Shown here in pieces: positions 1 through 39,706 of a stretch of 64,000 bases of DNA. The stretch's first letter is position 1, and each line of letters opens with the position of its first letter. This DNA is from Candidatus Fimihabitans intestinipullorum (GTDB lineage: Bacteria; Bacillota_I; Bacilli_A; RF39; UBA660): NCBI GenBank assembly GCA_018714965.1, contig DVML01000025.1, positions 14,207 to 78,206 of the forward strand. Direction: 5' to 3'. Both the position numbers and the translations under genes were made by a program. The notes below the pieces were generated by a model. The model had not been told where the DNA came from. It saw only the letters and a program-made list of their open reading frames with translations, and did not search any database.

Positions 1-1983
1 AATATCCCCAAAAGTGAATCATTGAGCTCGCTTTTAGATACGCTGCAATTTGATGATAATAATGAAAATGATAGAATTTATGCGGCTATATTTACGAGTT
101 TATTAACACAACAATTAACAAAAATCATGGATGATATTGCAACGAAAGTGGTTGAAGTTGACATACAAAATAAAAATACTGCCGAATACGATCGTCGTGT
201 ACAAATGGAAAATGGAGATCTTTTAAAAATCTTTAAGGATCAATATGCGAAAGTCGCAAAAGAGCGAGCAGAAAAGATGGCGATGGAAGATGCTGAAAAG
301 GCAGCAAAAGCAGATTATGAAGCCGGAAATGAAGATCACAAGGAACCACAGCTATTAGACTCTATGAGTGATGTTTATCGTAGCGCATATGTCGGTAAGT
401 ATAGTAAAGCATATAAATTGGCAATCAACAAATTGAAACCACATGGACCGGCTGCAGATCCAGATGACGAATTAGAACAATTACGTCAACTGCAAGAGCA
501 AAATGAGAAAAAAGGCAAGAAGAAATCTAAGCCTGCTAAGTTAAAAAGTGCTGCACACAAATTAAAAGTAAATAAATTTGGTGTTAAATTCTTGAATAAA
601 GTAGGTAAGTGGGGACAAAGACAATTAAATGATGTAGAAGATGTTATAGAGGAATTTGGATCTGTTCGAGCTATTCATAATCCTTATAGAGAAAACTATT
701 ATTCAAAGGCTGAAAGAGAACGTTGTGAGAAGATTTTAATAGCGTATGAACGTTTGCAAGAACTTTTGGGAATCAGTCCTGCACGTAATCGAGATGGATC
801 TAAACCTTATATAAGTATTAAAGATGCTATGGCAGTGGCTGGTTTAACAAAAGCTCAGAAACAATCCCTTCAAGCATTGGAAGGAAAAGTGACAAAGGCC
901 TATCATACATTGGCTCATACAGCTAAGGATTCAACAGAGCTAGATGCGATTGTAAAAGAAGCGGATGAGTTACTGGATCAGTTTTTAGTGCGTGAAGATC
1001 AGATTATGATTCCTTCCATCGTGGGAAAAGTAACGACATTCCTTAAAGATGGAGAAAAGTTTGGATACATTGGTTCTTTATATCATATGCCAAAATTAAA
1101 GGAAGCTTATGATATATTGATGGACCAAAAGCCATTAACTCGTGCAAATTATGCTAAAGCACTTGATTTAACGGACAAAATGGAGAAATTCTATGAGTTA
1201 GAAAGAAAATTAGCGAAGAGCTTCATGGCGCATAAGTTAGAAAAACAAGAAACCGCAAAACCAGCTGAGAAGAAACCAACTGCAGCTCCTACACAAAAAC
1301 CGGAAGAAGCAACTGCGGCTAAGCCAACACCAGCTCCAACGTTTACTCCAGTTGCACAATCGAGTCCAAAGCCTAGCCAGGCAGAACCGGTCTTGACGCA
1401 AGCTGAATTACTTCGTCAACTACACGAAGCTCAACAAGAAACAATTGAATTGAGAGAAAAAAATAAAAAACTAAATGAAACGTTGAAAAAGAGAAGCAAG
1501 AGTTTGAAATCAGCTAAAAATGATAAGAGAAGATTGAAAACAGAAAATACTCAGTTGAAACAATCTATCGAGTTATTAACGAAGAATGTAAATGAATTAA
1601 GTAGACAAATGCAACAGATGACAAGTGATTTAAATATACTTAGAGATGCAGTTGCAAAAGAAGAACGCCAGAAGGAACAGTATAAACAAATGGTAGATGA
1701 AATGAGGAAAGCAATAAAGCATCAACCATCAGTAGAGTTGAATTCAGACGAAAAAGAAGTTGAAGAACTCGCATCTTACATGGATCGAATTGATAAGAAA
1801 CGCTTTTTTGAAAATGAGGCATCTCACGACGTTTTAAATGATCTTTATATGTTAAAAGCGAAAGGAAATTTACGACCTGAATATGCTGAAAAATTAAATA
1901 AAGCAATTCGTCAGATCGAGGAAGGTAGAAGTGTCGCAAAAGGTCAACCGGAACTTGATATTCCGTTTCAGAAACATTTATAA
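1..1983 (+). CDS. Large orphan coiled-coil protein with Pro/Thr/Ala linker (5'-truncated by window edge)
   Basis: Frame is open from base 1 (NIPKSESLSSLL...), so the true start is upstream; heptad-rich C-terminal third; PTAAPT/KPTPAPT linker; no family motif recognised. Confidence 0.75.
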   Translation, partial: NIPKSESLSSLLDTLQFDDNNENDRIYAAIFTSLLTQQLTKIMDDIATKVVEVDIQNKNTAEYDRRVQMENGDLLKIFKDQYAKVAKERAEKMAMEDAEKAAKADYEAGNEDHKEPQLLDSMSDVYRSAYVGKYSKAYKLAINKLKPHGPAADPDDELEQLRQLQEQNEKKGKKKSKPAKLKSAAHKLKVNKFGVKFLNKVGKWGQRQLNDVEDVIEEFGSVRAIHNPYRENYYSKAERERCEKILIAYERLQELLGISPARNRDGSKPYISIKDAMAVAGLTKAQKQSLQALEGKVTKAYHTLAHTAKDSTELDAIVKEADELLDQFLVREDQIMIPSIVGKVTTFLKDGEKFGYIGSLYHMPKLKEAYDILMDQKPLTRANYAKALDLTDKMEKFYELERKLAKSFMAHKLEKQETAKPAEKKPTAAPTQKPEEATAAKPTPAPTFTPVAQSSPKPSQAEPVLTQAELLRQLHEAQQETIELREKNKKLNETLKKRSKSLKSAKNDKRRLKTENTQLKQSIELLTKNVNELSRQMQQMTSDLNILRDAVAKEERQKEQYKQMVDEMRKAIKHQPSVELNSDEKEVEELASYMDRIDKKRFFENEASHDVLNDLYMLKAKGNLRPEYAEKLNKAIRQIEEGRSVAKGQPELDIPFQKHL

Positions 1984-1991
1984 GATTTACC

Positions 1992-2020
1992 AAAAAAGCG
2001 AAATAACATTTCGCTTTTTT
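1992..2020 (+). terminator. Rho-independent terminator
   Basis: AAAAAAGCGAAAT-aac-ATTTCGCTTTTTT hairpin right after the stop codon. Confidence 0.8.
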
Positions 2021-2080
2021 ACTACTTACGAACATTGTATTTTTGATCTATCTGTAGTATAATGAGAAATAGGTGATACT

Positions 2081-2506
2081 ATGTTTTACATATGGATAGG
2101 AATTATCATTTTATTAACGATTGTGGAGTTATTAACAGTAAAACTAACAACTGTGTATTTTGTTTTTTCTGGTATTGTCGCTTTGTTGCTTTCATTTCGA
2201 GTTGAAAGCTTTCCGATACAGTTTGCGGTGTTTGCAATTTTGGGAATTGTACTTTTGATTACGACGAAGCCAACTTTGGAAAGATTATTAAAACGAACAC
2301 CATCTAGCTTAGATCAAGAATCTATTTTGGGAATGCAGGGAGTTGTGATTGATGCGATGAAGAAAAATCACCCTGGAACAATTAAAGTAGATGGAAAAGT
2401 ATGGGCTGCAATCTCACAAAAGAAAATTAAAGTGGGAAGTACAGTGAAGATACTAGAAGTTGATGGTATGACGTTAAAGGTTGCACCGATTGAAGAAGAG
2501 GCATAA
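2081..2506 (+). CDS. NfeD family membrane protein (short form, C-terminal OB fold)
   Basis: Three N-terminal hydrophobic segments then ILGMQGVV...GTIKVDGKVWAA...KVGSTVKILEVDGMTLKV; RBS AGGTGA. Confidence 0.85.
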   Translation: MFYIWIGIIILLTIVELLTVKLTTVYFVFSGIVALLLSFRVESFPIQFAVFAILGIVLLITTKPTLERLLKRTPSSLDQESILGMQGVVIDAMKKNHPGTIKVDGKVWAAISQKKIKVGSTVKILEVDGMTLKVAPIEEEA

Positions 2507-2521
2507 TAAGCTGGTGGTTGT

Positions 2522-3367
2522 ATGAAAAAAAAGATGAGAAATATTTGGAATGCAATTCAGTGGCCACTTATTTTGGTTATATTTGAATTCTGCATTCTTT
2601 TTCTTTTGTTAGGATATTTTGAGTATCACGAGATACAAACGCAGTTGGACACACATCCTGAATGGTCGATGGCAGAAGCATCTAAGGTGGTAAATCAAAT
2701 TTTAGAGACGAAAGAAGGTACAAACGCAATAGCGCAATTTTTATTAGATCATTTATGGATTTTAGTTCTTTTGAATGCTTGTTTATTGTTACCGATTGTT
2801 TATCATTTTTACAAGAAACATCAACATCGTTTTCCTAGACATGTTTCTGATCGAAGTAAGATCCATATACTCTTCTGTTCTATTGCACTTGCGTTGTGTC
2901 TCAATCTTATATTGACTGGGATTTCCTCTCTCTTTGGGATATCTATAGAGACGGAATCTCAGCTTCGACGTCCTATTTTTTGGATGATTTGTAGTAGTGG
3001 TATAATAGGTCCGATCATCGAAGAGCTTGTATTCCGTGGGATCGTATACGATAGATTGCAAGCGTCTTGCCCCAAGTATCGTGCTTCTTTTTTCACGACA
3101 ATCTTGTTTGCTTTGTACCATGGAAATTTAGTGCAAATTATTTACGCTTTTGCGATGGGAAGTTATTTTATCTATTGTTATGATCATTACGAGAATATTA
3201 CGGCAAGTATTATCGCTCATATAAGTGCGAATGTTTCCACTTTAATTTTACTTCCATATCTTTTAAACTTACCATTTATATGGATCGTTTTATCATGTGT
3301 TATGCTAGCTTTCGTTGGTTATTATATGTTCCAGAAAATTAGAAAAGGGATTAGTATTTATTCCTAA
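2522..3367 (+). CDS. CPBP (CAAX/Abi) family intramembrane metalloprotease
   Basis: GPIIEELVFRG, FALYH and AHISAN motifs in a polytopic membrane protein. Confidence 0.85.
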   Translation: MKKKMRNIWNAIQWPLILVIFEFCILFLLLGYFEYHEIQTQLDTHPEWSMAEASKVVNQILETKEGTNAIAQFLLDHLWILVLLNACLLLPIVYHFYKKHQHRFPRHVSDRSKIHILFCSIALALCLNLILTGISSLFGISIETESQLRRPIFWMICSSGIIGPIIEELVFRGIVYDRLQASCPKYRASFFTTILFALYHGNLVQIIYAFAMGSYFIYCYDHYENITASIIAHISANVSTLILLPYLLNLPFIWIVLSCVMLAFVGYYMFQKIRKGISIYS

Positions 3368-3475
3368 TATTTGGAAATAATAAAAGAGAAGACAAAAAAT
3401 GCAAAAGTTTCTCTTTTTTTCTCTGAAAAATTTTTCTTACGCTGAAAAAAATGGTATAATGTTGATGGTGATGAT

Positions 3476-22022: not shown

Positions 22023-22982
22023 TTGAATCAAAAAAATGAAATAATTTTATTTGAAAACCAAAAAGTCAAACTTGAAGTTAATATGCAAGATGAGACTGTG
22101 TGGCTAAATACAGAGCAAATGGCTCAATTATTTGATAGAGATTATAAAACTATTAGAAAGCATATCAATAATATCTTAGAAGAGGAATTGAAAGATGAAA
22201 AGGTTGTCGCAAAATTTGCGAATACCACTACACATGGTGCGATTGCAGGAAAAGTTCAAACACATATGATAGACTATTACAATCTTGACGTCATTATTAG
22301 TGTTGGTTATCGTGTAAAGTCGCAAAATGGTATCATTTTTAGAAAATGGGCAAACAAAATATTAAAAGATTACATGATAAAAGGTTATGCAGTCAATCAA
22401 AAAAGGTTGGAATATTTAGAAAAGACGATTAAGCTAATAGATATCGCGAATAGAATTGATGAAAAATTAGAAAATAATGATGCCAAAGAAATTTTGAGAG
22501 TGATAGGAAGTTATTCAAAAGCACTTGATTTATTAGATGATTATGATCACAGAACGCTATTGAAACCTAAAGGAAATAATAGTCAGAAACGAATAAAATA
22601 TGAAGATTGTTCAGAAATAATTAATAGGTTAAAATTCAATGAAGAAAGTGATATTTTTGCTATCGAACGAAATAAAGGATTAGAAGCGATTATAGGAAAT
22701 ATTTATCAAACATATGATGGTAAAGATGTTTATCAAAGTATAGAAGAAAAAGCTTCTAACTTTATATATATGATTGTTAAAAATCATGTTTTCATTGATG
22801 GAAATAAAAGGATTGCGGCAACATTGTTTATTTATTTTTTAAATTACTATAATATTTTGTATCAGGATGGTAAACAAGTCATTGATAATAACACTTTAAC
22901 GGCTTTAACATTATTGATTGCGGAGTCAAACCCAAAAGAAAAAGAGATTATCATCGATCTAGTTATGAATTTTCTTAGTTAA
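22023..22982 (+). CDS. RhuM-like domain fused to Fic/Doc domain
   Basis: ETVWL..QMAQLF, YNLDVIISVGYRVKS, FRKWA; HVFIDGNKR Fic/Doc motif. Confidence 0.9.
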   Translation: MNQKNEIILFENQKVKLEVNMQDETVWLNTEQMAQLFDRDYKTIRKHINNILEEELKDEKVVAKFANTTTHGAIAGKVQTHMIDYYNLDVIISVGYRVKSQNGIIFRKWANKILKDYMIKGYAVNQKRLEYLEKTIKLIDIANRIDEKLENNDAKEILRVIGSYSKALDLLDDYDHRTLLKPKGNNSQKRIKYEDCSEIINRLKFNEESDIFAIERNKGLEAIIGNIYQTYDGKDVYQSIEEKASNFIYMIVKNHVFIDGNKRIAATLFIYFLNYYNILYQDGKQVIDNNTLTALTLLIAESNPKEKEIIIDLVMNFLS

Positions 22983-23523: not shown

Positions 23524-24414
23524 ATGGAAAAATCAAAAGTATATTTTATTCGAGAGATCACTCCCGGAAATATTATTAAAGCATATGAAGCTTTAGGTAA
23601 AAATTTAGAAGGGAACGTCGCTGTTAAAATGCACTCTGGGGAACAGGGAAATCAAAATTATTTGAGACCAGAGTTCGTTCAAGATGTGATTCATCATGTG
23701 AATGGAACGGTCGTAGAGTGTAATACGGCATATGAAGGTGCTAGAAATTCTACAGAAAAACATAAAAAGTTAATCGAAGAACACGAATGGAATAAATATT
23801 TTCCGTTTGACTTATTGGACGCAGAGGGACCAGATATGGAACTTGAGATTCCAAATGGTAAAGTGTTAAAGAAAAATTATGTTGGAAAGAATTTAGCAAA
23901 CTACAATGCTTTACTTGTCTTATCCCATTTTAAGGGACACGCCATGGGTGGATATGGTGGAGCTTTAAAACAACTTTCTATCGGATGTGCATCTTCTCAT
24001 GGAAAAACGTTAATCCATACGGCAGGTGTGACAGATGATCAAAAGGTATTATTTCAAAATTTGCCAGAGCAGGATAGGTTTTTAGAAGCTATGGCAGATG
24101 CAGCAAAGTCTGTCGTAGATTATTTTAAAGGGAATGCAATTTATATCAATGTTATGAAAAATATTTCAGTCGATTGTGATTGTGATGCGCATGCATCCGC
24201 ACCATGTATGCAGGATATTGGAATTTTAGCGAGTCTCGATCCTGTTGCAGTCGATCAAGCTTGTCTAGATTTAGTTTATCAGTCAAATGATCCTGGAAAA
24301 GATAAATTGATCGAGAGAATTGAATCTCGTCACGGAGTACATACGATTGAAAGTGCCTACGATCTCGGTGTTGGAAATAGGGAATACGAACTTGTTCAAA
24401 TAGATGAAAAATAA
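23524..24414 (+). CDS. DUF362 family Fe-S protein
   Basis: VAVKMHSGE, SHFKGH, GGALKQL, DCDC, DPVAVDQA. Confidence 0.85.
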   Translation: MEKSKVYFIREITPGNIIKAYEALGKNLEGNVAVKMHSGEQGNQNYLRPEFVQDVIHHVNGTVVECNTAYEGARNSTEKHKKLIEEHEWNKYFPFDLLDAEGPDMELEIPNGKVLKKNYVGKNLANYNALLVLSHFKGHAMGGYGGALKQLSIGCASSHGKTLIHTAGVTDDQKVLFQNLPEQDRFLEAMADAAKSVVDYFKGNAIYINVMKNISVDCDCDAHASAPCMQDIGILASLDPVAVDQACLDLVYQSNDPGKDKLIERIESRHGVHTIESAYDLGVGNREYELVQIDEK

Positions 24415-24551
24415 GAAAGTTTTTACTTTCTTTTTTTCTTTTATATGGAACACATTTCTGACTTTTGATTGACTTCTCCCACAATTCATATTACAATGAT
24501 ATTAGGTGAAATCATAAGTATTTTACTTAGTATATATATTGGAGGGAAGAT

Positions 24552-26105
24552 ATGGAACAGATAGCGTTTTCCATTTTACTTGTCCTCCTTGGACTTTTTG
24601 TTGGAGTCATACTAGTGATTCTAATTAATTATCTTAAGGGTAATTTAGCTGCAAAAAAAGTAGAGGCTTTATTAGAACGTGCCAAGAAAGATGCCGATAA
24701 GGTCAAACGAGATTACTTATTAGAGGCAAAAGAAGAGGCACATCGTTTAAAAAGAGAAACTGAAAAAGAAATCAAAGAGAAAAAAAATGAAATGAAAGAA
24801 TCAGAAGATCGTTTGCTTGCACGTGAAAATAACATGGACCGTAGAGATCAGACATTACAAAATCGTGAGCAGATGTTAGAAGATAAAGAAAATCATTTAA
24901 TTCAAAAACAAAAAGATATCCAAGATGAACAAGCGAAAGTGGAAGAGATTAAGAAGGAACAAATTCAACTATTAGAAAGTATTGCAGGCTTTTCAAAGAA
25001 TCAAGCTCGTGAGCTTGTTCTTAAAAAAGTAGAGGATATGATGAGTTTAGAGATTGCAGCACTCATCAAGGATCGAGAAGCAGAAGCAAAATTAGAAGTT
25101 GATAAAAAATCGAAAGATATGTTAGTGTCTTGTATGCAAAAATATGCATCAGATGTAGCTAACGAACAGACTGTCACAGTCGTTAATTTACCAAGTGACG
25201 ATATGAAGGGACGAATCATTGGGCGTGAAGGAAGAAATATTCGTACGATCGAAGCAGTAACAGGAGTTGATCTCATTATCGACGACACTCCTGAGGCAAT
25301 AGTCCTTTCTAGTTTTGATCCACTACGTCGCGAAATTGCTCGCGTTACATTAGAAACATTAATCAAAGATGGAAGAATTCATCCTACGAGAATCGAAGAA
25401 GTGTACGATAAAGTGAGCAAGGATATGAATGCTAAGATTTTAGAATATGGAAACAATGCATTATTCGAACTTGGTATTACTAAAATGGATCCAGAATTGG
25501 TAGAATTAGTTGGTAAACTTCATTTTAGAACAAGCTACGGGCAAAATGCATTACAACATTCTATTGAAGTAGCTAGTTTATCAGGATTATTAGCTGCGGA
25601 GTTAGGAGAAAATGTTAATTTAGCAAAACGTGCTGGACTTCTTCACGATATCGGAAAGGCGATCGATCATGAAGTAGAGGGAAGCCACGTAGAATTAGGA
25701 GCAGATTTAGCACGTAAATTCCATGAGAATGATACTGTGTTAAATGCGATAGAATCACATCATGGTGATCATCCAGCAACGACGATCATCTCTGAAATCG
25801 TAGCGATAGCAGATACTCTTTCGGCATCGCGGCCTGGAGCTAGAAATGACTCGTTAGAAAATTACGTAAAACGTTTACAAGAATTAGAAGCGATAGCAAA
25901 TGATATGGATGGCATTGAAAAGACATTTGCTGTACAGGCAGGTAGAGAACTACGCGTTATCGTAAAACCTGAAGAGATCGATGATCTCGGAAGCTATAAG
26001 GTAGCACGCGATATTAAAAATAAAATTGAAGAACAGATGCAGTATCCGGGAACGATTAAGGTTACTGTCATTCGTGAAACGAGAGCGACAGAGGAAGCAA
26101 AATAA
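24552..26105 (+). CDS. rny: Ribonuclease Y
   Basis: N-terminal TM, coiled coil, KH domain ([13 protein letters not shown]), HD domain (LLHDIGK), RPGAR. Confidence 0.97.
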
Positions 26106-26221
26106 TTTGCTTCTTTTTGTATGAAATGTATTTGCGCCCAGTTTTTGTTACTTTTAAACAAAAGACGACTTTTTTCGATTGTTTAAATGCTATTCTAGAA
26201 GAGTGGATAAAGGGGGATTTT

Positions 26222-27028
26222 ATGCAAGAGCAACAAATGAGAGGGTTAATTGCGGAGTTTCAAACACAACTCGCTTCTATAGAGGGAAGATTAACTGCGT
26301 TTCAATATACTTCAGAATTAAGGGAGTATTTCAAGTCTTATATCGTGACAGAATTAGAGAAAGATAGAGTTTCGTTAGATCAGATGAAACAGGCATTCTT
26401 TTTTTCGAGTACGAACGAGGAAGATCTTTGTCGTCAATATTTTTTTTTAGAAAAACACGATTATCTTTTAAGTATTAGTGAAATTATCGATATGAATTAT
26501 CATATGAGAGAGATTAGAGAACAGATTCGACAACTGACAAAAATCGTGTTTGATCGATTGCGAAGGCAGATTGTAGTACACTTGAAAAGTGAAAGTCAGA
26601 GTAGAATCACTTTAGAAAGTCATGCGCTAACAGGATATGATCTATCCTATTTATTAAATGAAATTGGAATTCCTTCTAATTTAAAAGGTCGTCAATATAT
26701 CGAATATATTATGATTGAATTATTAGAGCGTAAGTTATCGATCAAAGATGGAATTACGACATCGATTTATCCGATGGTTGCAAGTTTCTTTCAGACGACA
26801 CCGAGTAAAGTGGAACGTTCAATTCGTCATGCGATCGAAGTTGCTTGGATGAGAGGAAATGAGCAACTGTTACACGAATTATGTGGATATACAGTATCTT
26901 TTTCGGCATCGAAACCGACAAATAGAGAATTTTTAGCAAATTTGTTTCATTATCTAGAACTAAAATTATGCCATAATGGAATTGATAAAGAGAGTTTTTC
27001 TTCATTACGACATTCTTTGTTATCATAA
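26222..27028 (+). CDS. Spo0A C-terminal DNA-binding domain protein lacking a receiver domain
   Basis: EIGIPSNLKG..Y...IT..IYP.VA..F.TTPSKVERSIRHAIEVAW.RG...GYTVS...KPTNREF matches the Spo0A_C signature; N-terminal ~140 aa helical with no REC motifs; ATG at 26222 behind AGGGGG. Confidence 0.85.
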   Translation: MQEQQMRGLIAEFQTQLASIEGRLTAFQYTSELREYFKSYIVTELEKDRVSLDQMKQAFFFSSTNEEDLCRQYFFLEKHDYLLSISEIIDMNYHMREIREQIRQLTKIVFDRLRRQIVVHLKSESQSRITLESHALTGYDLSYLLNEIGIPSNLKGRQYIEYIMIELLERKLSIKDGITTSIYPMVASFFQTTPSKVERSIRHAIEVAWMRGNEQLLHELCGYTVSFSASKPTNREFLANLFHYLELKLCHNGIDKESFSSLRHSLLS

Positions 27029-27054
27029 AAAGTACTTGAATATCAAGTACTTTT
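27028..27054. terminator. Bidirectional terminator
   Basis: AAAAGTACTTGA-ata-TCAAGTACTTTT between convergent genes. Confidence 0.8.
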
Positions 27055-27310
27055 AATAATTTCTGTAATATGGTCCATAATATGGATATGGGTAGTAATA
27101 ATAATTATTATAATATGGTCTAGGATAGAAATATGGAGCAACTAAACCACCGGTGACACCACCTAGTAAAAATGGGAATAGAAAACCACCGAGGCGATCA
27201 GAATTTGCTGCATTGACTGGTTGAATATTTCTTCTGTTGTTGTTTCCATATGCATATGGATAAAATTGGGCTGAAGGAACGTATCCGTTTCCTAACTGAT
27301 TTGAATACAT
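27053..27310 (-). CDS. Small Tyr/Pro/Gly-rich probable spore coat protein
   Basis: GGFLFPFLLGGVTGGLVAPYFYPRPYY...; strong RBS AAAGGAGAGG; sigmaK-like promoter. Confidence 0.7.
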   Translation of the reverse strand: MYSNQLGNGYVPSAQFYPYAYGNNNRRNIQPVNAANSDRLGGFLFPFLLGGVTGGLVAPYFYPRPYYNNYYYYPYPYYGPYYRNY

Positions 27311-32405: not shown

Positions 32406-34754
32406 GTGATAAAAACTAACTTGCCAGTCATTTTATTACGTAATATGTTATTACTTCCTAATAACGAGTTAAGATTCGAGTTCGATCAAGACGAAACAAA
32501 AAATATATTAGATGTCGCGGAACTATTTCACGAAAATAAATTACTTGTTGTAAGTAGTGAAGATTCATTAGAAGAAATGCCAGATTTAGAAGGACTACCT
32601 AATGTTGGAGTGATTGCAGTCATCGAAAGTAAAATGGAATTGCCTAATGACAAAACGCGAGTCGTGATTCGTGGACTAGAACGAGCTCACATTATAGAGT
32701 ACTTAAATATTACGCGTACGAAAGAAGTATTAGAAGCAATTGTTCAAAAAGAAGAAGAAGAGGAAATTTCGGAGGATAAGAACCGTATTTTAGTACATAA
32801 ATTACTTACGGAATTAGAAAGCTACCTAAAAAAAATTCCTTATATGAGCAATAGTATGATGGCGTCGATTCGCAAAGAAAAACAACTGCCTATCGTTACA
32901 GATATGATTGCTCCTCATCTCCCTATTTCGACGGAGAGATACTATGAATATTTAGGAGAATTTAAAGCTGTCATTCGTGCAGAGATGATCTTAAAAGATC
33001 TATATGAACAAGAGCATATATTCGAGGTTGAAAAAGAGATTGATCAACGAGTAAGAAAAGAAGTAGATCAACATCAAAAAGAGTTTTTATTACGTGAACG
33101 CATGAAAGTGATTCAAGAAGAGTTAGGAGAAGAAGAGTTTTCTAAAACAGAGGTAGATCGCTTTTTAGAAAAAGAAAAGAAATTACGTTTGCCCAAAAAA
33201 GTAAAAGAACGTTTAGATAGTGAGATACACCGTTACAAGTCTTTGCCACCGATGTCCCCTGAAGTGAATATGATTCATACATATATCGATTGGATTTTAG
33301 ATTTGCCTTGGAGAAAATATTCTGAAGATTGTAAGGACTTCTCTTTCGTTCAAGATAAACTAAATGAATCCCATGCGGGATTATCTAAAATTAAAGAACG
33401 TATTATAGAATTTTTAGCGGTTCGACAGATGGCAGGTAAAATGTCAGGTTCGATTATCTGTTTTGTCGGACCTCCAGGTGTAGGAAAGACGTCACTTGCT
33501 TTTTCTATCGCAAAGGCGATGAAACGAGAATTTGTGAAAATTTCAGTCGGAGGAGTTTCCGACGAATCAGAGATTATGGGACACCGTCGCACTTATATCG
33601 GAGCAATGCCCGGACGTATTATTCAAGCGATGAAGCGATCTCACACCAATAACCCAGTTTTCTTGATCGACGAAATCGATAAAATGACAAAATCGATTCA
33701 TGGGGATCCGGCAAGTTGTTTTTTGGAAATTTTAGATCCGGAGCAAAATAAAATGTTTCGTGATAACTATATCGAGGAAGCGTATGATTTATCGAATGTC
33801 TTATTTATTTTGACAGCGAACGATATCGATGAAATTCCAGATCCGCTTCGCGATCGACTTGAAATTATCATGTTGGATGGTTATACGGAATATGAAAAAC
33901 TCGATATAGCTAAAAATTATTTAATTCCAAAATTATGTCGTACTCACGGGTTAAAACAAAAGCAAGTGGAAATAAGTGATCGAGAGATTCTATACATGAT
34001 TCGATATTATACAAAAGAAGCAGGAGTACGTGAATTAGAAAGACAATTGGAAAAAGTGCTAAGAAAGATCGTGACAAAAATCGTAGTGGCACATGAAAAA
34101 AAGAGAGTATACCACATCTCTCATCAGGATTTGTTATATTATTTAGGAAAAGAAAAATTTCAATATATGAAACGAGGAAAAAACGTTCCCGGGGTGGTCA
34201 ATGGGCTTGCATATACTTCCTATGGTGGAGATACATTGCCGATTGAAGTGAATTATTATAAAGGAAATGGAAATCTTGTATTAACAGGGTGTTTGGGAGA
34301 TGTGATGAAAGAGAGTGCTACGATTGCACTTTCCTATATTAAATCAAATGCTGAAATGTTACATATTCCATATAATATGTTAGTAGAAAACGATATTCAC
34401 ATTCACGTTCCGGAAGGAGCGATTCCAAAAGATGGACCTAGTGCGGGAATTACGTTAGTAACAGCTCTTTATAGTGCATTTCAAAAGTTAAAGGTAGAAC
34501 GAACGATAGCGATGACTGGAGAAATCACATTACAAGGGCAGGTATTACCTGTTGGAGGAATTAAAGAAAAAAGTCTTGGAGCAGCACGGCAAGGGATTAG
34601 AACAATTTTGCTTCCTCATGAGAACTTAAAAGATTTAGATGAGGTTCCAGAGGAGATCAAAAAGAAAATTCGTTATATTCCAGTAAAATACTATGTGGAT
34701 GTATTAAAGTATTTGAAAGAAGGAAAAGAATATGATTTTGCGAGAAATAGATGA
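32406..34754 (+). CDS. lon: ATP-dependent Lon protease
   Basis: Lon N domain, GPPGVGKTS, IDEIDK, EAGVRELER, PKDGPSAG, MTGEI, GGIKEK; GTG start behind AGGAGG. Confidence 0.96.
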   Translation: MIKTNLPVILLRNMLLLPNNELRFEFDQDETKNILDVAELFHENKLLVVSSEDSLEEMPDLEGLPNVGVIAVIESKMELPNDKTRVVIRGLERAHIIEYLNITRTKEVLEAIVQKEEEEEISEDKNRILVHKLLTELESYLKKIPYMSNSMMASIRKEKQLPIVTDMIAPHLPISTERYYEYLGEFKAVIRAEMILKDLYEQEHIFEVEKEIDQRVRKEVDQHQKEFLLRERMKVIQEELGEEEFSKTEVDRFLEKEKKLRLPKKVKERLDSEIHRYKSLPPMSPEVNMIHTYIDWILDLPWRKYSEDCKDFSFVQDKLNESHAGLSKIKERIIEFLAVRQMAGKMSGSIICFVGPPGVGKTSLAFSIAKAMKREFVKISVGGVSDESEIMGHRRTYIGAMPGRIIQAMKRSHTNNPVFLIDEIDKMTKSIHGDPASCFLEILDPEQNKMFRDNYIEEAYDLSNVLFILTANDIDEIPDPLRDRLEIIMLDGYTEYEKLDIAKNYLIPKLCRTHGLKQKQVEISDREILYMIRYYTKEAGVRELERQLEKVLRKIVTKIVVAHEKKRVYHISHQDLLYYLGKEKFQYMKRGKNVPGVVNGLAYTSYGGDTLPIEVNYYKGNGNLVLTGCLGDVMKESATIALSYIKSNAEMLHIPYNMLVENDIHIHVPEGAIPKDGPSAGITLVTALYSAFQKLKVERTIAMTGEITLQGQVLPVGGIKEKSLGAARQGIRTILLPHENLKDLDEVPEEIKKKIRYIPVKYYVDVLKYLKEGKEYDFARNR

Positions 34755-35556
34755 ATTATGGATCGATCAAATTGAGGCGGAATTATACGTCGATTACTTA
34801 TGTTATGCAGAAGATAGTCAACTCTCTAAAGAGATGTTATTGCGACTCAAGAATCCGGATTATTCAGAGGCGTTATATTATTTGTTATTAACGGTCGTAC
34901 CAGAAGGTGTAGATATTTCTGAGAAGATTCGTCACAGAATGCTGTTGTTACTTGAATTGATAGAGATTTATTTTCCGCAGGACGTATTATTTTCTGATGC
35001 TATCATGACTTATTGGAAAGAAGCACTATTTCAAAAGCAAGGGGTAAAAGAAACCAAAATAGAAGCAAGAGAAAAACTACAATTTTTAAGTTGTATCGAT
35101 GTAAAAAAAACTGACGAGCAAGAGAGAAGATATGATGAGAAAAGGGCGAGAGAATATGCTTTTTTCCGATTTCTCTGCCAAATAGATGTAACCGAGAGGG
35201 GAAAGAATGGAGTTTATCTATATGCGGATTACATTCTTGATCCTTATCTACCATCAATTATCGATGATTGGTATAACCGATTTCCCGCAATATTTAGAAT
35301 CGATGAAATGACTGAAAAGATCGTATTTTTACTATCATCTCGCAGTGCTCTTACGAGGGCGGAGATAGAAGATTCTATTGATTTCGAGGTAGAGATAGAA
35401 GATGGGATCTTTCAGCATCAATATTCAAAGGAAGAAATAAAAAAGGTTCAATCACTAGATCCACACGGATTCGTGGATGATTTATTAAATGATATACAAA
35501 CAATGCTGGCATCATATGATCAAAACAATATGCCACGGAAAAAGTTAATGGCTTAG
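34732..35556 (+). CDS. Orphan ~270-aa acidic helical protein, tandem paralog 1 of 4
   Basis: Overlaps the lon 3' end; shares motifs with the next three ORFs. Confidence 0.75.
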   Translation: MILREIDELWIDQIEAELYVDYLCYAEDSQLSKEMLLRLKNPDYSEALYYLLLTVVPEGVDISEKIRHRMLLLLELIEIYFPQDVLFSDAIMTYWKEALFQKQGVKETKIEAREKLQFLSCIDVKKTDEQERRYDEKRAREYAFFRFLCQIDVTERGKNGVYLYADYILDPYLPSIIDDWYNRFPAIFRIDEMTEKIVFLLSSRSALTRAEIEDSIDFEVEIEDGIFQHQYSKEEIKKVQSLDPHGFVDDLLNDIQTMLASYDQNNMPRKKLMA

Positions 35557-35566
35557 GAGGTATAAT

Positions 35567-36385
35567 ATGGCACGACATACAAAAGAAGAAATAGATTATG
35601 CATACGACCAAGCAAATATTGAAAATATTTTACAATACTTTTGCTATGCAAATCCTATTCAATATAGAATCGAAGAGGATCCGTTATTATTATCGGTTGA
35701 TTTCGTAATGGAACTAATGGATTTAATATTATCGTATTCTGAGAATAAAAACATCTCAAAGTCGATTCGCAATAACTTAATTGGCTTGATCAATTATATG
35801 GGAAGAATTGCTCCACACTATGAGACGATCGCACAACCAGGGCTTTTAGAAGAGTTAAAACACGTATTAAGACAAAGTTCTGAAGAAAATAAAGAATCAA
35901 GTGAATACATGCTTTTTTGCGATACGAGAGAAGACATGGTTAGTAAGGAAGAGTATAAAATTCATAAGGAACAATATCGAGAAGAATTATATGCTTTTTT
36001 ATTAGATGAGACTTATTTTTTTGATCATTGTTGTATACCCGATTTGGACGTTAATAATTTGATTTCGCTCGCACGTAGACCGGATGTTTTGTCAATGGTC
36101 TATCGTTTTATCGATAAACATAAAATCCTGATAGAAGCCCCTTTATGTCACGATCGATTACAGTTGTTACTTTTTGTACGTGATGCTATGGAGCAAGCTA
36201 CAACGTCTCTTGAATTTCGATTTACAGAACAAAGCGGTCATGAAACGAGAGTTCAAGTAGATCATGAATTATTTTCACATTTATATCATTATCATGAAGC
36301 GTCAGAGCTAAAGGAACTCAAACACAATTTAGAAAGTTATCATAAAGGAGAAGTTCCAATAAGAAGAAAATTGGATTTAAACTAG
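35567..36385 (+). CDS. Orphan ~270-aa acidic helical protein, tandem paralog 2 of 4
   Basis: RBS AGGAGG; similar size and motifs to neighbours. Confidence 0.75.
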   Translation: MARHTKEEIDYAYDQANIENILQYFCYANPIQYRIEEDPLLLSVDFVMELMDLILSYSENKNISKSIRNNLIGLINYMGRIAPHYETIAQPGLLEELKHVLRQSSEENKESSEYMLFCDTREDMVSKEEYKIHKEQYREELYAFLLDETYFFDHCCIPDLDVNNLISLARRPDVLSMVYRFIDKHKILIEAPLCHDRLQLLLFVRDAMEQATTSLEFRFTEQSGHETRVQVDHELFSHLYHYHEASELKELKHNLESYHKGEVPIRRKLDLN

Positions 36386-36399
36386 AAAAGAAGGATTTT

Positions 36400-37212
36400 A
36401 TGAAAAGTCAAGAATATGAAGAATATAAGGAAGTAGTTGTAGATTGCTATGTAGAATATCTGATATGTATACCAGAACTTTCAGAATTGAATATGCTTGG
36501 GAACTTTTTGTGTACTGATTTGGTTGCTCAGAAAAAGCTTCAAAAGATCGTTGATGAAATGGACGAGCATAAAAATTGTGGGCTAGAAAAAAGAAAGCGT
36601 TTGAGGGAGTTATGCGCTGTTGCGTATCATTACGCAAAAGAAAAAAAGTGGATTGCGGAACAAGAAAAGTATGAATCATTATCTTGTAAGATTGCTACAT
36701 TGTCAAGTGAAAATTACGACACTTTTTATCGTCGACAATTTTTAGATATTTTAGATGTTTCTATGCAGGAGAATGTCTTAGAAAGTCATACAACAAGAGA
36801 GTTAGAATTTACATTAGATCAAATCAAATGTTTACAATATATCTGTTTGGTAGATTTATCGAAAGTAGAAAACATTCTTCCACAGATTGAGTATTATGTA
36901 AAATATCCTTTTACAAGTTATATGGCTGATATGTTATTAGATCAGTATCCAATACTTGTTACAAATGATGCTTTTTATTACTTTATGAAGCATGTATATA
37001 TGGTACGACTTGCTTTTTTAACGACGATGCAGCAGTCTATCGATGTGGAATGGATGGGACAGAGTTCAACCATTACGTGTACAGATGAAGAATATGATGA
37101 TTTGTATTATTTTGATCCACTTGAACATCAAGAGAATTCTTTTCAAACGTTAGAAGAACTTCGCGATCAATGGACAAAACCACATAGTGGAAAATCTATG
37201 TTGATAAGTTAA
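36400..37212 (+). CDS. Orphan ~270-aa acidic helical protein, tandem paralog 3 of 4
   Basis: RBS GAAGGA; similar size and motifs to neighbours. Confidence 0.75.
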   Translation: MKSQEYEEYKEVVVDCYVEYLICIPELSELNMLGNFLCTDLVAQKKLQKIVDEMDEHKNCGLEKRKRLRELCAVAYHYAKEKKWIAEQEKYESLSCKIATLSSENYDTFYRRQFLDILDVSMQENVLESHTTRELEFTLDQIKCLQYICLVDLSKVENILPQIEYYVKYPFTSYMADMLLDQYPILVTNDAFYYFMKHVYMVRLAFLTTMQQSIDVEWMGQSSTITCTDEEYDDLYYFDPLEHQENSFQTLEELRDQWTKPHSGKSMLIS

Positions 37213-37222
37213 GGAGAGTAGT

Positions 37223-38038
37223 ATGTTAGAAGATAGAGAGTATATGACGCAAGATAGATTTGATGTATGGTTGAATGCAAAATTATATCAACCGGATTTT
37301 CAGATTGACGAGGCTTTTTTAAGAGATCTTTTTCAGTTTGAGACGGACGAGTTTCTCATAGATTTTCTATATCATGTGTTTGTTGGAAAATATATGGGAG
37401 GGTATCCAAAGGAACATCTAATAGACTTACTTTGTGAAATTCAGTCGGTCCCACATTTGATAGATCATGAGAGAACGTTATATCAAACAGATCGATTAGT
37501 AGAGATGATCGAGCATGCTGATGATCATAATAGGTACTGGTATTATAAAAATTGGAAATATACACATCTTTTAAACGATTCTTACAATTATAGTTTATTA
37601 GAAGAAGATATTTATGAGTTGATTATTTTGGAAAATGAGGTTCTCCATTATCTAGATGAGAAAGTTTTATATGATCTAGAAGAAGAAAAAGATTTTCAAA
37701 AAGGGCAAAGACTGGAGCGCACATTTCAAAGGTTGCTACATTCCACGCATACGACGTGTGCGATTCAAGCTTTGATTTACGATGTTGAAGAATTGATTGT
37801 AGATAATGATTATTATACTGAAATCATGAAATTACTAGAAGGAAGAAAACAAATTTTAACTTCTTTGCACGAAGATAAAATCGAAAGAAGATCACTATCT
37901 CTTTTTCATGATGGAAGATTGATTACTGTAGACTATGGAGATACAGAGTCTAATATAGATAAAACTGTACGATATATGGATCAAGTATATAAGGAAGATT
38001 ATGGAAGCGAAAGATATCAAAATACATTATTTCATTAA
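37223..38038 (+). CDS. Orphan ~270-aa acidic helical protein, tandem paralog 4 of 4 (most diverged)
   Basis: RBS AAGGAG; same length class; weak motif similarity. Confidence 0.7.
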   Translation: MLEDREYMTQDRFDVWLNAKLYQPDFQIDEAFLRDLFQFETDEFLIDFLYHVFVGKYMGGYPKEHLIDLLCEIQSVPHLIDHERTLYQTDRLVEMIEHADDHNRYWYYKNWKYTHLLNDSYNYSLLEEDIYELIILENEVLHYLDEKVLYDLEEEKDFQKGQRLERTFQRLLHSTHTTCAIQALIYDVEELIVDNDYYTEIMKLLEGRKQILTSLHEDKIERRSLSLFHDGRLITVDYGDTESNIDKTVRYMDQVYKEDYGSERYQNTLFH

Positions 38039-38075: not shown

Positions 38076-38100
38076 GTAGTAAATGTGGAGGGAGAGAATT

Positions 38101-38829
38101 ATGAAAAAGATAATACCATTTAAAAAGGAGATCGTATTTAAGACGAATTTAGCAGAAGTTACGAGTATTTCTCTAGAACATTCCCTGCATGTAGAGAATG
38201 ATCAATTGATTACAGGATCTTTCGAAGTCAGTGGGGAATATAAAATATCGGATAATAGCGCAACGACAGATGTATTTTCATTTGAGTTGCCATTTGATAT
38301 CGAAATGGATGATCGTTATGATTTATCTGGGTGCTCGGTAGATATTCATGATTTTTATTATGAGATTATCAATAATAGTATTTTGGCTGTCAATATAGAA
38401 GTAAGTGTTTCTAATTTCAAAGAAAAACCATTGATAGAAGAGGAGGAAGAAGAATTGCAAGAGGTAACACGTACGATTACACCGTTAGAGGCAGATTTGG
38501 TAAGAGAAGAAACAGAACCTACATCAGAAGGATCAGAAAAGATAGAAGAACCAGAAGAAATTTTTAACAAGGGAAGGTGTGTCGAGGAAGAAACTCCAGA
38601 GGATTTACCAAAGGAGAGAATTGGAACTTTATTTGATTCTTTTGATGAGACGAAAGAAACGTATGCGACATATAAAGTATATATCGTAAGAGAAGGCGAT
38701 ACGTTAGAATCTATTTTAGAAAAGTATAGTACGACAAAAGAAATTCTAGAACCGTACAACCAATTATCAGAACTACAACTCGGAATGAAGTTAATCATTC
38801 CACAGACGGAGCATGCGACAAATATTTAA
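38101..38829 (+). CDS. spoVID: SpoVID-like spore coat assembly protein with C-terminal LysM domain
   Basis: SISLE...ITGSFEVSGEY...DFYYEI N-domain, acidic linker, YIVREGDTLESILEKY...G.KLIIP LysM; synteny with ysxE. Confidence 0.7.
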   Translation: MKKIIPFKKEIVFKTNLAEVTSISLEHSLHVENDQLITGSFEVSGEYKISDNSATTDVFSFELPFDIEMDDRYDLSGCSVDIHDFYYEIINNSILAVNIEVSVSNFKEKPLIEEEEEELQEVTRTITPLEADLVREETEPTSEGSEKIEEPEEIFNKGRCVEEETPEDLPKERIGTLFDSFDETKETYATYKVYIVREGDTLESILEKYSTTKEILEPYNQLSELQLGMKLIIPQTEHATNI

Positions 38830-39706
38830 CGTACTTGAGCGTTATCAGATCAAACCTAAAAAGTATGTGATGAAAGGAAAAGCGACCTTGATCGAAACAT
38901 CGGAAGGTCGCTTTGCAATCAAAGAGAAAAATCGTTCTGAAAATGGGAAAATTTTGCAGTATTTGAATTCTAGAAATTTCGATTATTATCCCAAGGTAAA
39001 GATCGAAGATGATAGTTATGAAATTAGAGAATACATCGAAGATATCAATATGCCAAGGGATCAAAAGATTGCTGATCTTATCGATCTCGTTAGTTTATTA
39101 CATAATAAGACGACACATTACAAGGAAGTAGATGAAGATGACTATAAAATCATTTTCGAAGATATCAAAAATAACATTGCGTATTTAACAGAGTATTATA
39201 ACGATATCATTTCTATTATCGAGACGAAAGTTTTTATGAGTCCGAGTGAATATTTATTTGCACGCAATGTAAGTAAAATTTACTCTTGTCTTCACTACTG
39301 TGATGTGGAACTAGATCGTTGGTATGATTTGATGAAAGAAAAAAGAAAACAACGTGTCGTTGTTTTGCATAACAATTTATCTTTAGATCATTTTTTAAGA
39401 AATCAAAGCTCGTATTTGATTAGTTGGGAGAAAGCCAAAATTGGAATTCCTATTTTTGATTTATACAAGCTTTATAAAAGACATGGTTTAGAATTTGAAT
39501 TTGGAGAGCTCTTAAAACAGTATGAGAGAAATTACCCATTACAAAAAGAAGAGAGAATGTTATTTTTTATTTTAATCTCTCTTCCAGATAAAATAGAATT
39601 TACAGCGTCAGAGTATAAAATGTGCCATATCGTGAGTGATTTTATCGATTCGTTATATAAGACAGAACAATTGATTTCACCATATTATGTGGAACAAGGA
39701 AAATAA
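38813..39706 (+). CDS. ysxE: YsxE/CotS-family spore coat kinase-like protein
   Basis: DL..LVSLLH.KT.HYK, SPSEYLF, R.VVLH.NL.LDH, LISWEKA, P..DL..LY; directly after spoVID. Confidence 0.75.
   Translation: MRQIFNVLERYQIKPKKYVMKGKATLIETSEGRFAIKEKNRSENGKILQYLNSRNFDYYPKVKIEDDSYEIREYIEDINMPRDQKIADLIDLVSLLHNKTTHYKEVDEDDYKIIFEDIKNNIAYLTEYYNDIISIIETKVFMSPSEYLFARNVSKIYSCLHYCDVELDRWYDLMKEKRKQRVVVLHNNLSLDHFLRNQSSYLISWEKAKIGIPIFDLYKLYKRHGLEFEFGELLKQYERNYPLQKEERMLFFILISLPDKIEFTASEYKMCHIVSDFIDSLYKTEQLISPYYVEQGK

Follow-up and report, generated by a model that had tools for sequence, protein, structure and literature searches.

A receiver-less Spo0A paralog with a predicted four-helix N-terminal domain in Candidatus Fimihabitans intestinipullorum

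The paralog gene and its surroundings

The window, i.e. the whole stretch of 64,000 nucleotides analysed here, contains a 268 aa ORF (P0001) that starts with an ATG at 26222, ends with the stop codon at 27026-27028 and encodes a paralog of Spo0A. An in-frame TTG at 26117 is the alternative start; the ATG is preferred because it follows a purine-rich ribosome-binding site and because the same start codon is found both in the corresponding ORF of genome G001 and in P0077, the sole distant full-length relative. The upstream neighbour is rny, and a convergent gene of 85 aa (27053-27310, reverse strand) lies directly downstream; genes for a DUF362 protein, an M29 peptidase and a ylxY-like protein are also found nearby, and no phage or mobile genes were identified beside the paralog in this genome (G000). 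The product of the 85 aa ORF is rich in Tyr, Gly, Pro and Asn, has no Pfam match and is conserved in G001, G002 and G003; its composition resembles that of small spore-coat proteins.

Terminator-like hairpins flank the paralog (Table 1), and it therefore likely forms its own transcription unit, closed by these two structures, the first of which would separate it from rny. The RNA-labelled run X1 has a flat depth of 12-20 over the region, in genes and intergenic DNA alike, as DNA would give, and the other runs consist of patchy contigs.

Table 1. Features at the paralog locus, in window coordinates
Feature	Position	Strand	Basis
rny (RNase Y), upstream neighbour	24552-26105	+	
Terminator-like hairpin at the end of rny	26094..26118	+	MFE -13.1 kcal/mol, z -4.1; kept in 3/3 aligned genomes; absent from consensus scan
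Three degenerate 0A-box-like heptamers with 10 bp phasing in the expected -35 region (weak lead)	26154..26180	+	triple rank 27/648
Candidate extended -10 (sigma-A type), found by eye	26188..26196	+	TG-n-TAT start kept in 3/3 genomes; not called by promoter scan
Ribosome-binding site	26209..26216	+	G-rich run kept in 3/3 genomes
Receiver-less Spo0A paralog gene (P0001)	26222..27028	+	268 aa ORF; Spo0A_C match; dN/dS 0.054 against G001
Predicted four-helix bundle at the N-terminus (residues 1-122), not assigned to a known family	26222..26587	+	AlphaFold2; generic structural matches only; dN/dS 0.068
Spo0A effector (DNA-binding) domain (residues 138-250)	26633..26971	+	PF08769, 102 bits; 1FC3/1LQ1, E 4e-24; top match 1FC3 in Foldseek and VIA
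Recognition helix; E213/R214/R217/H218 equivalents (residues 198, 199, 202, 203) kept	26801..26851	+	alignment to Spo0As; 16/16 variants unchanged
Phe-His-Tyr (residues 242-244) in place of A257-D258-K259	26945..26953	+	comparison with 39 canonical Spo0As
Terminator-like hairpin, likely bidirectional, common to the convergent 85 aa gene	27028..27054	.	z -6.6 on +, -5.7 on -

Upstream of the start codon, neither a single 0A box nor a pair of boxes reaches significance (rank 612 and rank 136, respectively, among 648 upstream regions); the test for a phased triple, picked after these two had failed, places the paralog at rank 27 and its counterpart in G001 at rank 7. The core positions of the heptamers are conserved among three genomes at 11 of 12 sites, against 49 of 76 for the remaining intergenic positions. 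Together these observations are a weak hint of feedback.

Elsewhere in the window, a SPOCS/LysM (spoVID-like) gene and, behind it, one of the APH family (38083-39706) are likely to be a spore-coat pair, and four tandem orphan ORFs of 270-274 aa lie behind lon (34732-38038) with no pairwise similarity at phmmer E<=0.01. A low-GC RhuM/Fic gene (22023-22982) is present in G000 and absent from the equivalent locus of G001.

Domain architecture and residue changes

The Pfam model Spo0A_C (PF08769) matches residues 144-245 well above its cut-off of 25 bits, while a Pfam search for the receiver domain (PF00072, Response_reg) gave no match at E<=0.1. Against a receiver (REC) profile made from 25 Spo0As of related genomes, the paralog scores 1.6 bits, compared with 78-194 bits for the REC-bearing Spo0As (loci L001, L003-L032). 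The acidic pocket, phospho-Asp and Lys of a receiver are absent, and the whole protein reaches 105 bits on the Spo0A equivalog model TIGR02875, below its 200-bit cut-off. By membership this is therefore not a Spo0A, yet it uses the DNA-binding domain of one. The original prediction, made from the sequence alone, of an N-terminus that is not a receiver and a C-terminus retaining the Spo0A recognition region is thus borne out, both motifs that it quoted being present at residues 192-209 and 231-237. Its description of the gene as a paralog also holds, since a canonical, REC-bearing spo0A (258 aa; 258 bits on TIGR02875) lies after tpiA on contig C41, and the paralog is on C15.

AlphaFold2, run on a four-row alignment, places helices at residues 2-25, 30-61, 66-90 and 95-122 and no strand; pLDDT in blocks of 10 residues is 48-83 across the bundle and 54.8 for the whole model. 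A model built from the single sequence is likewise all-helical, and is unreliable (pLDDT 43). The N-terminus does not, then, resemble a divergent receiver, and it follows that the proposed independence of phosphorylation holds in the two-component sense. Among the best 50 VIA matches, a structure search with the bundle retrieved only generic four-helix bundles, with no specific fold family, phosphatase or HPt domain. These matches all lie at Z<=11.1, below a caution level of about 13 for helical bundles, and single out none of the HPt, hemerythrin, ferritin-like and WXG100/LXG bundles. In the ESM Atlas, no usable match to the N-terminus could be found, and a query with P0077 retrieved only Spo0A_C clusters (0.85-0.86); PHROGs gave only weak matches to the N-terminus (E>=0.006).

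The most conserved part of the bundle is helix 3 (residues 66-90), in which 13 of 25 residues are identical between the paralog and P0077. These residues occupy two faces of the helix, as would be expected for an interface or binding surface. No His or Asp in residues 1-122 is conserved between these two sequences, so the pair shares no candidate for the phospho-His of an HPt domain, which argues against a role in phosphotransfer. Helix 3 also carries a conserved CheZ-like D/E-x-x-x-Q motif, discarded as too common: 1174 of 2543 windows of 122 aa from the proteome contain it.

Residues of the DNA-binding domain are numbered according to the 1LQ1 sequence, which is consistent with H162, L174 and A257 in PMC9195935. 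Columns at least 90% invariant among 39 canonical Spo0As were regarded as near-invariant; there are 43, and in the paralog 32 of them are unchanged and 11 differ (H162N, Y173R, R177E, I180M, K195T, L197I, R211K, F236C, S250R, I253L and D258H). Kept residues include T194, Y198, P199, K246-N249 and the set E213, R214, R217 and H218; the first three of this set are base contacts in Spo0A. The equivalent residues in P0077 are E, K, R and S. The claim of an 'intact' DNA-binding domain is hence only partly right, in that the recognition helix is kept but 11 of the 43 near-invariant columns differ and A257 is replaced by Phe. Position 257 is Ala, Ser or Thr, and position 258 Asp or Glu, in all 39 canonical proteins; the paralog has Phe and His at these sites and P0077 has Tyr at 257, while position 162 is Asn in both. 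The activation and dimer surface made up of H162, a small residue at 257 and D258 is accordingly N, F and H in the paralog. Position 229 is also changed; D258, F236 and I229 are assumed to act in activation, and S250 to have a role too. The changed residues R177, K195, Y173 and S250 are conserved in 37-39 of the 39 canonical proteins, and the C-terminal domain as a whole is only 39-46% identical to any canonical one compared. At position 174 the paralog has Gln, as do 30 of the 39.

In having a bulky residue at 257, the paralog resembles the A257V mutant of B. subtilis Spo0A (allele spo0A9V), but it is natural and receiver-less, has Phe rather than Val, and is also changed at the suppressor position H162. 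According to PMC9195935, A257V abolishes sporulation in B. subtilis while repression of abrB is kept, so that repression and activation come apart, the substitution is proposed to weaken dimerisation or a sigma contact, and H162R and L174F are suppressors. The same paper reports that A257V does not abolish spores in P. polymyxa, where Q174 is suggested to act as a suppressor.

Distribution, selection and origin

Of 401 genomes of the family, 383 contain Spo0A_C, and on a reading of the match table 25 have two or more matches. The bundle profile matches 3 of the 401, all belonging to the genus of G000 (one of 214 in the family) and all with the gene behind rny. In the sister genus represented by G003, the genes for the 85 aa protein and the M29 peptidase come straight after rny, and the site is empty; the paralog is likewise absent from the 27 loci of other genera, within the stretch of up to 1.5 kb examined (97 bases at one locus). 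Its 90% protein cluster has 81 member sequences, two entries being at 87% identity. The distant relative P0077 (272 aa, on one 6.7 kb contig) is 34% identical and collinear; as it shares both domains, the fusion of bundle and effector is older or wider than the genus. Searches for relatives of the bundle led no further than the genus and P0077, both in the 90% protein set and, marginal matches aside, in the other collections. Three matches were found among the 50% representatives, two loci among species genomes, three loci (all 99-100% identical) on metagenome contigs and none on viral contigs. The search of 401 order genomes returned the bundle itself plus four marginal matches (E about 1e-4 to 1e-3), and that of 399 class genomes the bundle itself only.

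Both domains are under purifying selection by these sequence comparisons, the dN/dS against G001 being 0.055 for the C-terminal domain (Table 1 gives the bundle and the whole gene), with 0.031 for spo0A and 0.009 for rny. In quick trees, from some of which long-branch rows were dropped, the C-terminal domain falls outside the spo0A clade of the family, near Spo0A of the C. innocuum type. Descent by local duplication from the spo0A of the family survives AU tests (p 0.34 and 0.06), and no donor is therefore proposed. Between G000 and G002, the paralog (26238-27053; locus L034) is 98-99% identical, against mostly 80-96% for neighbouring DNA, and its dS is 0.064 against 0.475 for rny, which suggests a recent exchange of alleles between species. 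A second patch of high identity at 24241-24641 means that this one is not unique. G002 also has an insert of about 3.5 kb right behind the paralog terminator.

Loss of the receiver is not in itself new. Truncated spo0A homologs of gut phages, which have the effector domain and no receiver, are proposed by Schwartz et al. 2023 (PMC10294663) to act independently of host signals, and 34 of 50 distinct spo0A copies recovered from viral contigs lack REC, some of them being frameshifted fragments. The paralog shares this arrangement with the phage genes; it differs in being chromosomal, at one site in all three genomes of the genus, and in carrying a full domain of 122 aa that was not found on viral contigs. 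Its neighbours and its GC3 (0.27, with rny and spo0A at 0.26-0.29) likewise give no sign of phage origin. An aromatic residue at 257 is also rare in the receiver-less viral copies (one Phe among 33 with a residue there), and hence is not the generic outcome of receiver loss; H162 is kept in just 3 of the 25 with a residue at that position. Counts of E213, R214 and R217 in this viral set are biased, as these residues were part of the search pattern.

Receiver loss also recurs within the family. A second copy without a REC match is present in 5 of 19 other multi-match genomes (G224, G348, G096, G320 and, with three repeats, G176), a comparison that left out G063 and G413 and in which short contigs may be mis-binned. 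The receiver-less Spo0A_C proteins L055, L056, L057, L059, L062 and L044 resemble the paralog in lacking a REC match, and L055, L056 and repeat 3 of L057 further carry Tyr at 257 and 259. They differ from it in what is attached at the N- or C-terminus, in having as many as three repeats and in their loci, and none matches the bundle profile. The L057 protein of G176 (1850-3457) has 535 aa with three receiver-less Spo0A_C repeats; a one-repeat version (L056, 1904-2638) lies at the same site in G348, of the same genus. Tandem Spo0A_C pairs behind tpiA were also observed, in G003 (L035, 2712-4367), G240, G264, G063 and G413; in the first three of these genomes both copies bear receivers and one is more diverged. 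Spo0A is single-copy in 107 of 118 genomes in bioRxiv 2022.02.25.481979, which also mentions paralogous spo0A genes in Clostridiales. Literature searches outside subscription journals listed no account of the fusion of bundle and effector or of the bundle domain. What is new is the replacement of the receiver by a conserved, predicted four-helix domain, together with a remodelled surface at 162, 257 and 258.

Sporulation genes of the host and the possible role of the paralog

The genome of 1.3 Mb is 94% complete. Its best NCBIfam matches include sigH, sigF, sigE, sigG, sigK, spoIIGA, spoIIAA, spoVAD and spoIVA, several being under cut-off; no SpoIIAB match over cut-off was found in the genome, and SpoIIE was found in none of five genomes. 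One locus (L050, contig C5, 119-2631) has the order spoIIAA, sigF, spoVAC-like, spoVAD, with no spoIIAB between the first two. This gene set fits the pattern given for RF39 in PMC10868615, in which sporulation is predicted, spoIIGA is present, and spoIIAB and spoIIE are reduced or absent. No Spo0E-like gene was detected, and the sole AbrB-fold match is a 219 aa frame, so that two usual brakes, Spo0E and AbrB, have no identified gene in a genome that is 94% complete.

Boxes of the TTCGACA type, phased, lie upstream of most canonical spo0A genes listed for the family, and the promoter of this genome's own spo0A ranks second of 648 for tandem 0A boxes; targets for a 0A-box-binding protein therefore exist, within a system that is conserved, and by that measure active, in the family. 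Rank one belongs to a histidine kinase gene (L051, contig C22, 10181-11419) with no response regulator in the adjacent listed ORFs, a candidate sporulation kinase under the control of Spo0A.

The reading preferred here, with confidence a little short of even, is that the paralog needs no phosphorylation to bind 0A boxes and works there as a competitor or a repressor, raising the threshold of Spo0A~P for sporulation. In its favour are the kept recognition helix, purifying selection on both domains and the two brakes that were not found. The isolated DNA-binding domain of Spo0A is described in PMC3485338 as binding its legitimate targets and bypassing phosphorylation. The paralog would occupy 0A boxes with no signal from a kinase and, by analogy with A257V, may activate poorly; it would then be likely to raise the level of Spo0A~P needed for sporulation to start, dampening rather than triggering entry. 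The bundle may supply dimerisation, or an input from a protein or ligand, in place of the receiver, and Spo0A or the paralog itself may control the paralog promoter via the weak phased boxes. Competition or repression is considered likelier than mimicry because A257 is Phe and, in PMC9195935, A257V blocks sporulation of B. subtilis but keeps abrB repression. Of the two outcomes first proposed, competing with or mimicking Spo0A, competition is the better fit, since the paralog is altered at positions linked with activation and with dimer contacts. Several observations count against this role as a brake. DNA binding could be weakened or redirected by R177E, K195T, Y173R and S250R, the pair H162N and A257F could compensate for each other and so restore a functional self-interface, and the promoter part suffers from weak boxes and a triple chosen post hoc. 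The spores of P. polymyxa A257V and the Q174 of the paralog weigh in the same direction (PMC9195935). With the bundle in only one of 214 genera, the paralog is not the family's general replacement for Spo0E. A bolder version, in which a four-helix sensor or partner domain gates a 0A-box repressor that replaces the missing Spo0E and AbrB brakes, giving a kinase-free second input to sporulation passed between species of the genus, is doubtful.

The alternative that the paralog is a new regulator with its own regulon, reading a drifted box or responding to a bundle ligand or partner and controlling genes unrelated to sporulation entry, is possible if on balance unlikely. The 11 changed columns, the divergence of the C-terminal domain, upstream boxes that are variant but have conserved cores, the lack of a sporulation operon around the gene and the two conserved faces of helix 3 all agree with it, and the residues presumed to read bases are nonetheless unchanged and under purifying selection. 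It is unlikely, by comparison, that the paralog is a constitutive mimic of Spo0A whose bundle dimerises in place of the receiver, so that early sporulation promoters are activated and the kinase bypassed. Removal of the receiver does free DNA binding (PMC3485338), phage copies without it may activate or repress without host signals (PMC10294663), and A257V P. polymyxa still sporulates, with the suggested suppressor Q174 shared by the paralog (PMC9195935). The joint occurrence of H162N with Phe or Tyr at 257 in the paralog and P0077 may also be compensatory. Against such a mimic, a canonical spo0A and an orphan kinase behind the best tandem 0A boxes of the genome are present. It is further opposed by the changes at A257, whose role is the published one given above, and at D258, F236 and position 229, whose roles are assumed.

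In Rap, Spo0E and CheZ, receivers are the targets of helical domains, and the bundle could in principle dock on the Spo0A receiver and inhibit or dephosphorylate it, the DNA-binding domain bringing the paralog to promoters where Spo0A is bound. The conserved motif of helix 3 and the missing Spo0E are in keeping with this, but the motif is commonplace, the paralog and P0077 share no His or Asp in the bundle, and the best 50 structural matches include no phosphatase or HPt, all of which makes docking very unlikely. Export, raised in the original prediction and here as delivery of an effector to other bacteria whose sporulation it would block or trigger, found no support and is highly improbable. 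The genome does have a type VII locus (C41, 53621-62300), separated by a few genes from the canonical spo0A upstream of it; this locus includes EssC (978 bits, above the cut-off), WXG100 and several small ORFs, and type VII substrates have helical N-termini. Yet it is unlinked to the paralog on C15, which has no LXG or WXG100 Pfam match, lacks signal and membrane segments (the highest Kyte-Doolittle mean over 19 residues being 0.86), has no adjacent immunity-like gene inside its two-hairpin unit and does not resemble the remaining orphan ORFs in the window. A degenerate receiver at the N-terminus, or a duplicate gene in decay, is scarcely credible: the length is close to that of canonical Spo0A and the AU tests are compatible with descent from the family's spo0A, but the model is all-helical, the REC profile score is negligible, dN/dS is about 0.06 and P0077 has remained collinear at 34% identity.

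The general weight of the paralog is limited by its narrow distribution, and receiver loss is recurrent and already published. Spo0A is commonly viewed as a single-copy switch gated by phosphorylation, and against this background a chromosomal paralog with another folded domain in place of the receiver offers a natural test of whether an input other than phosphorylation can govern 0A boxes. It equally lets one ask whether, in nature, repression and activation are separated by the A257 surface.
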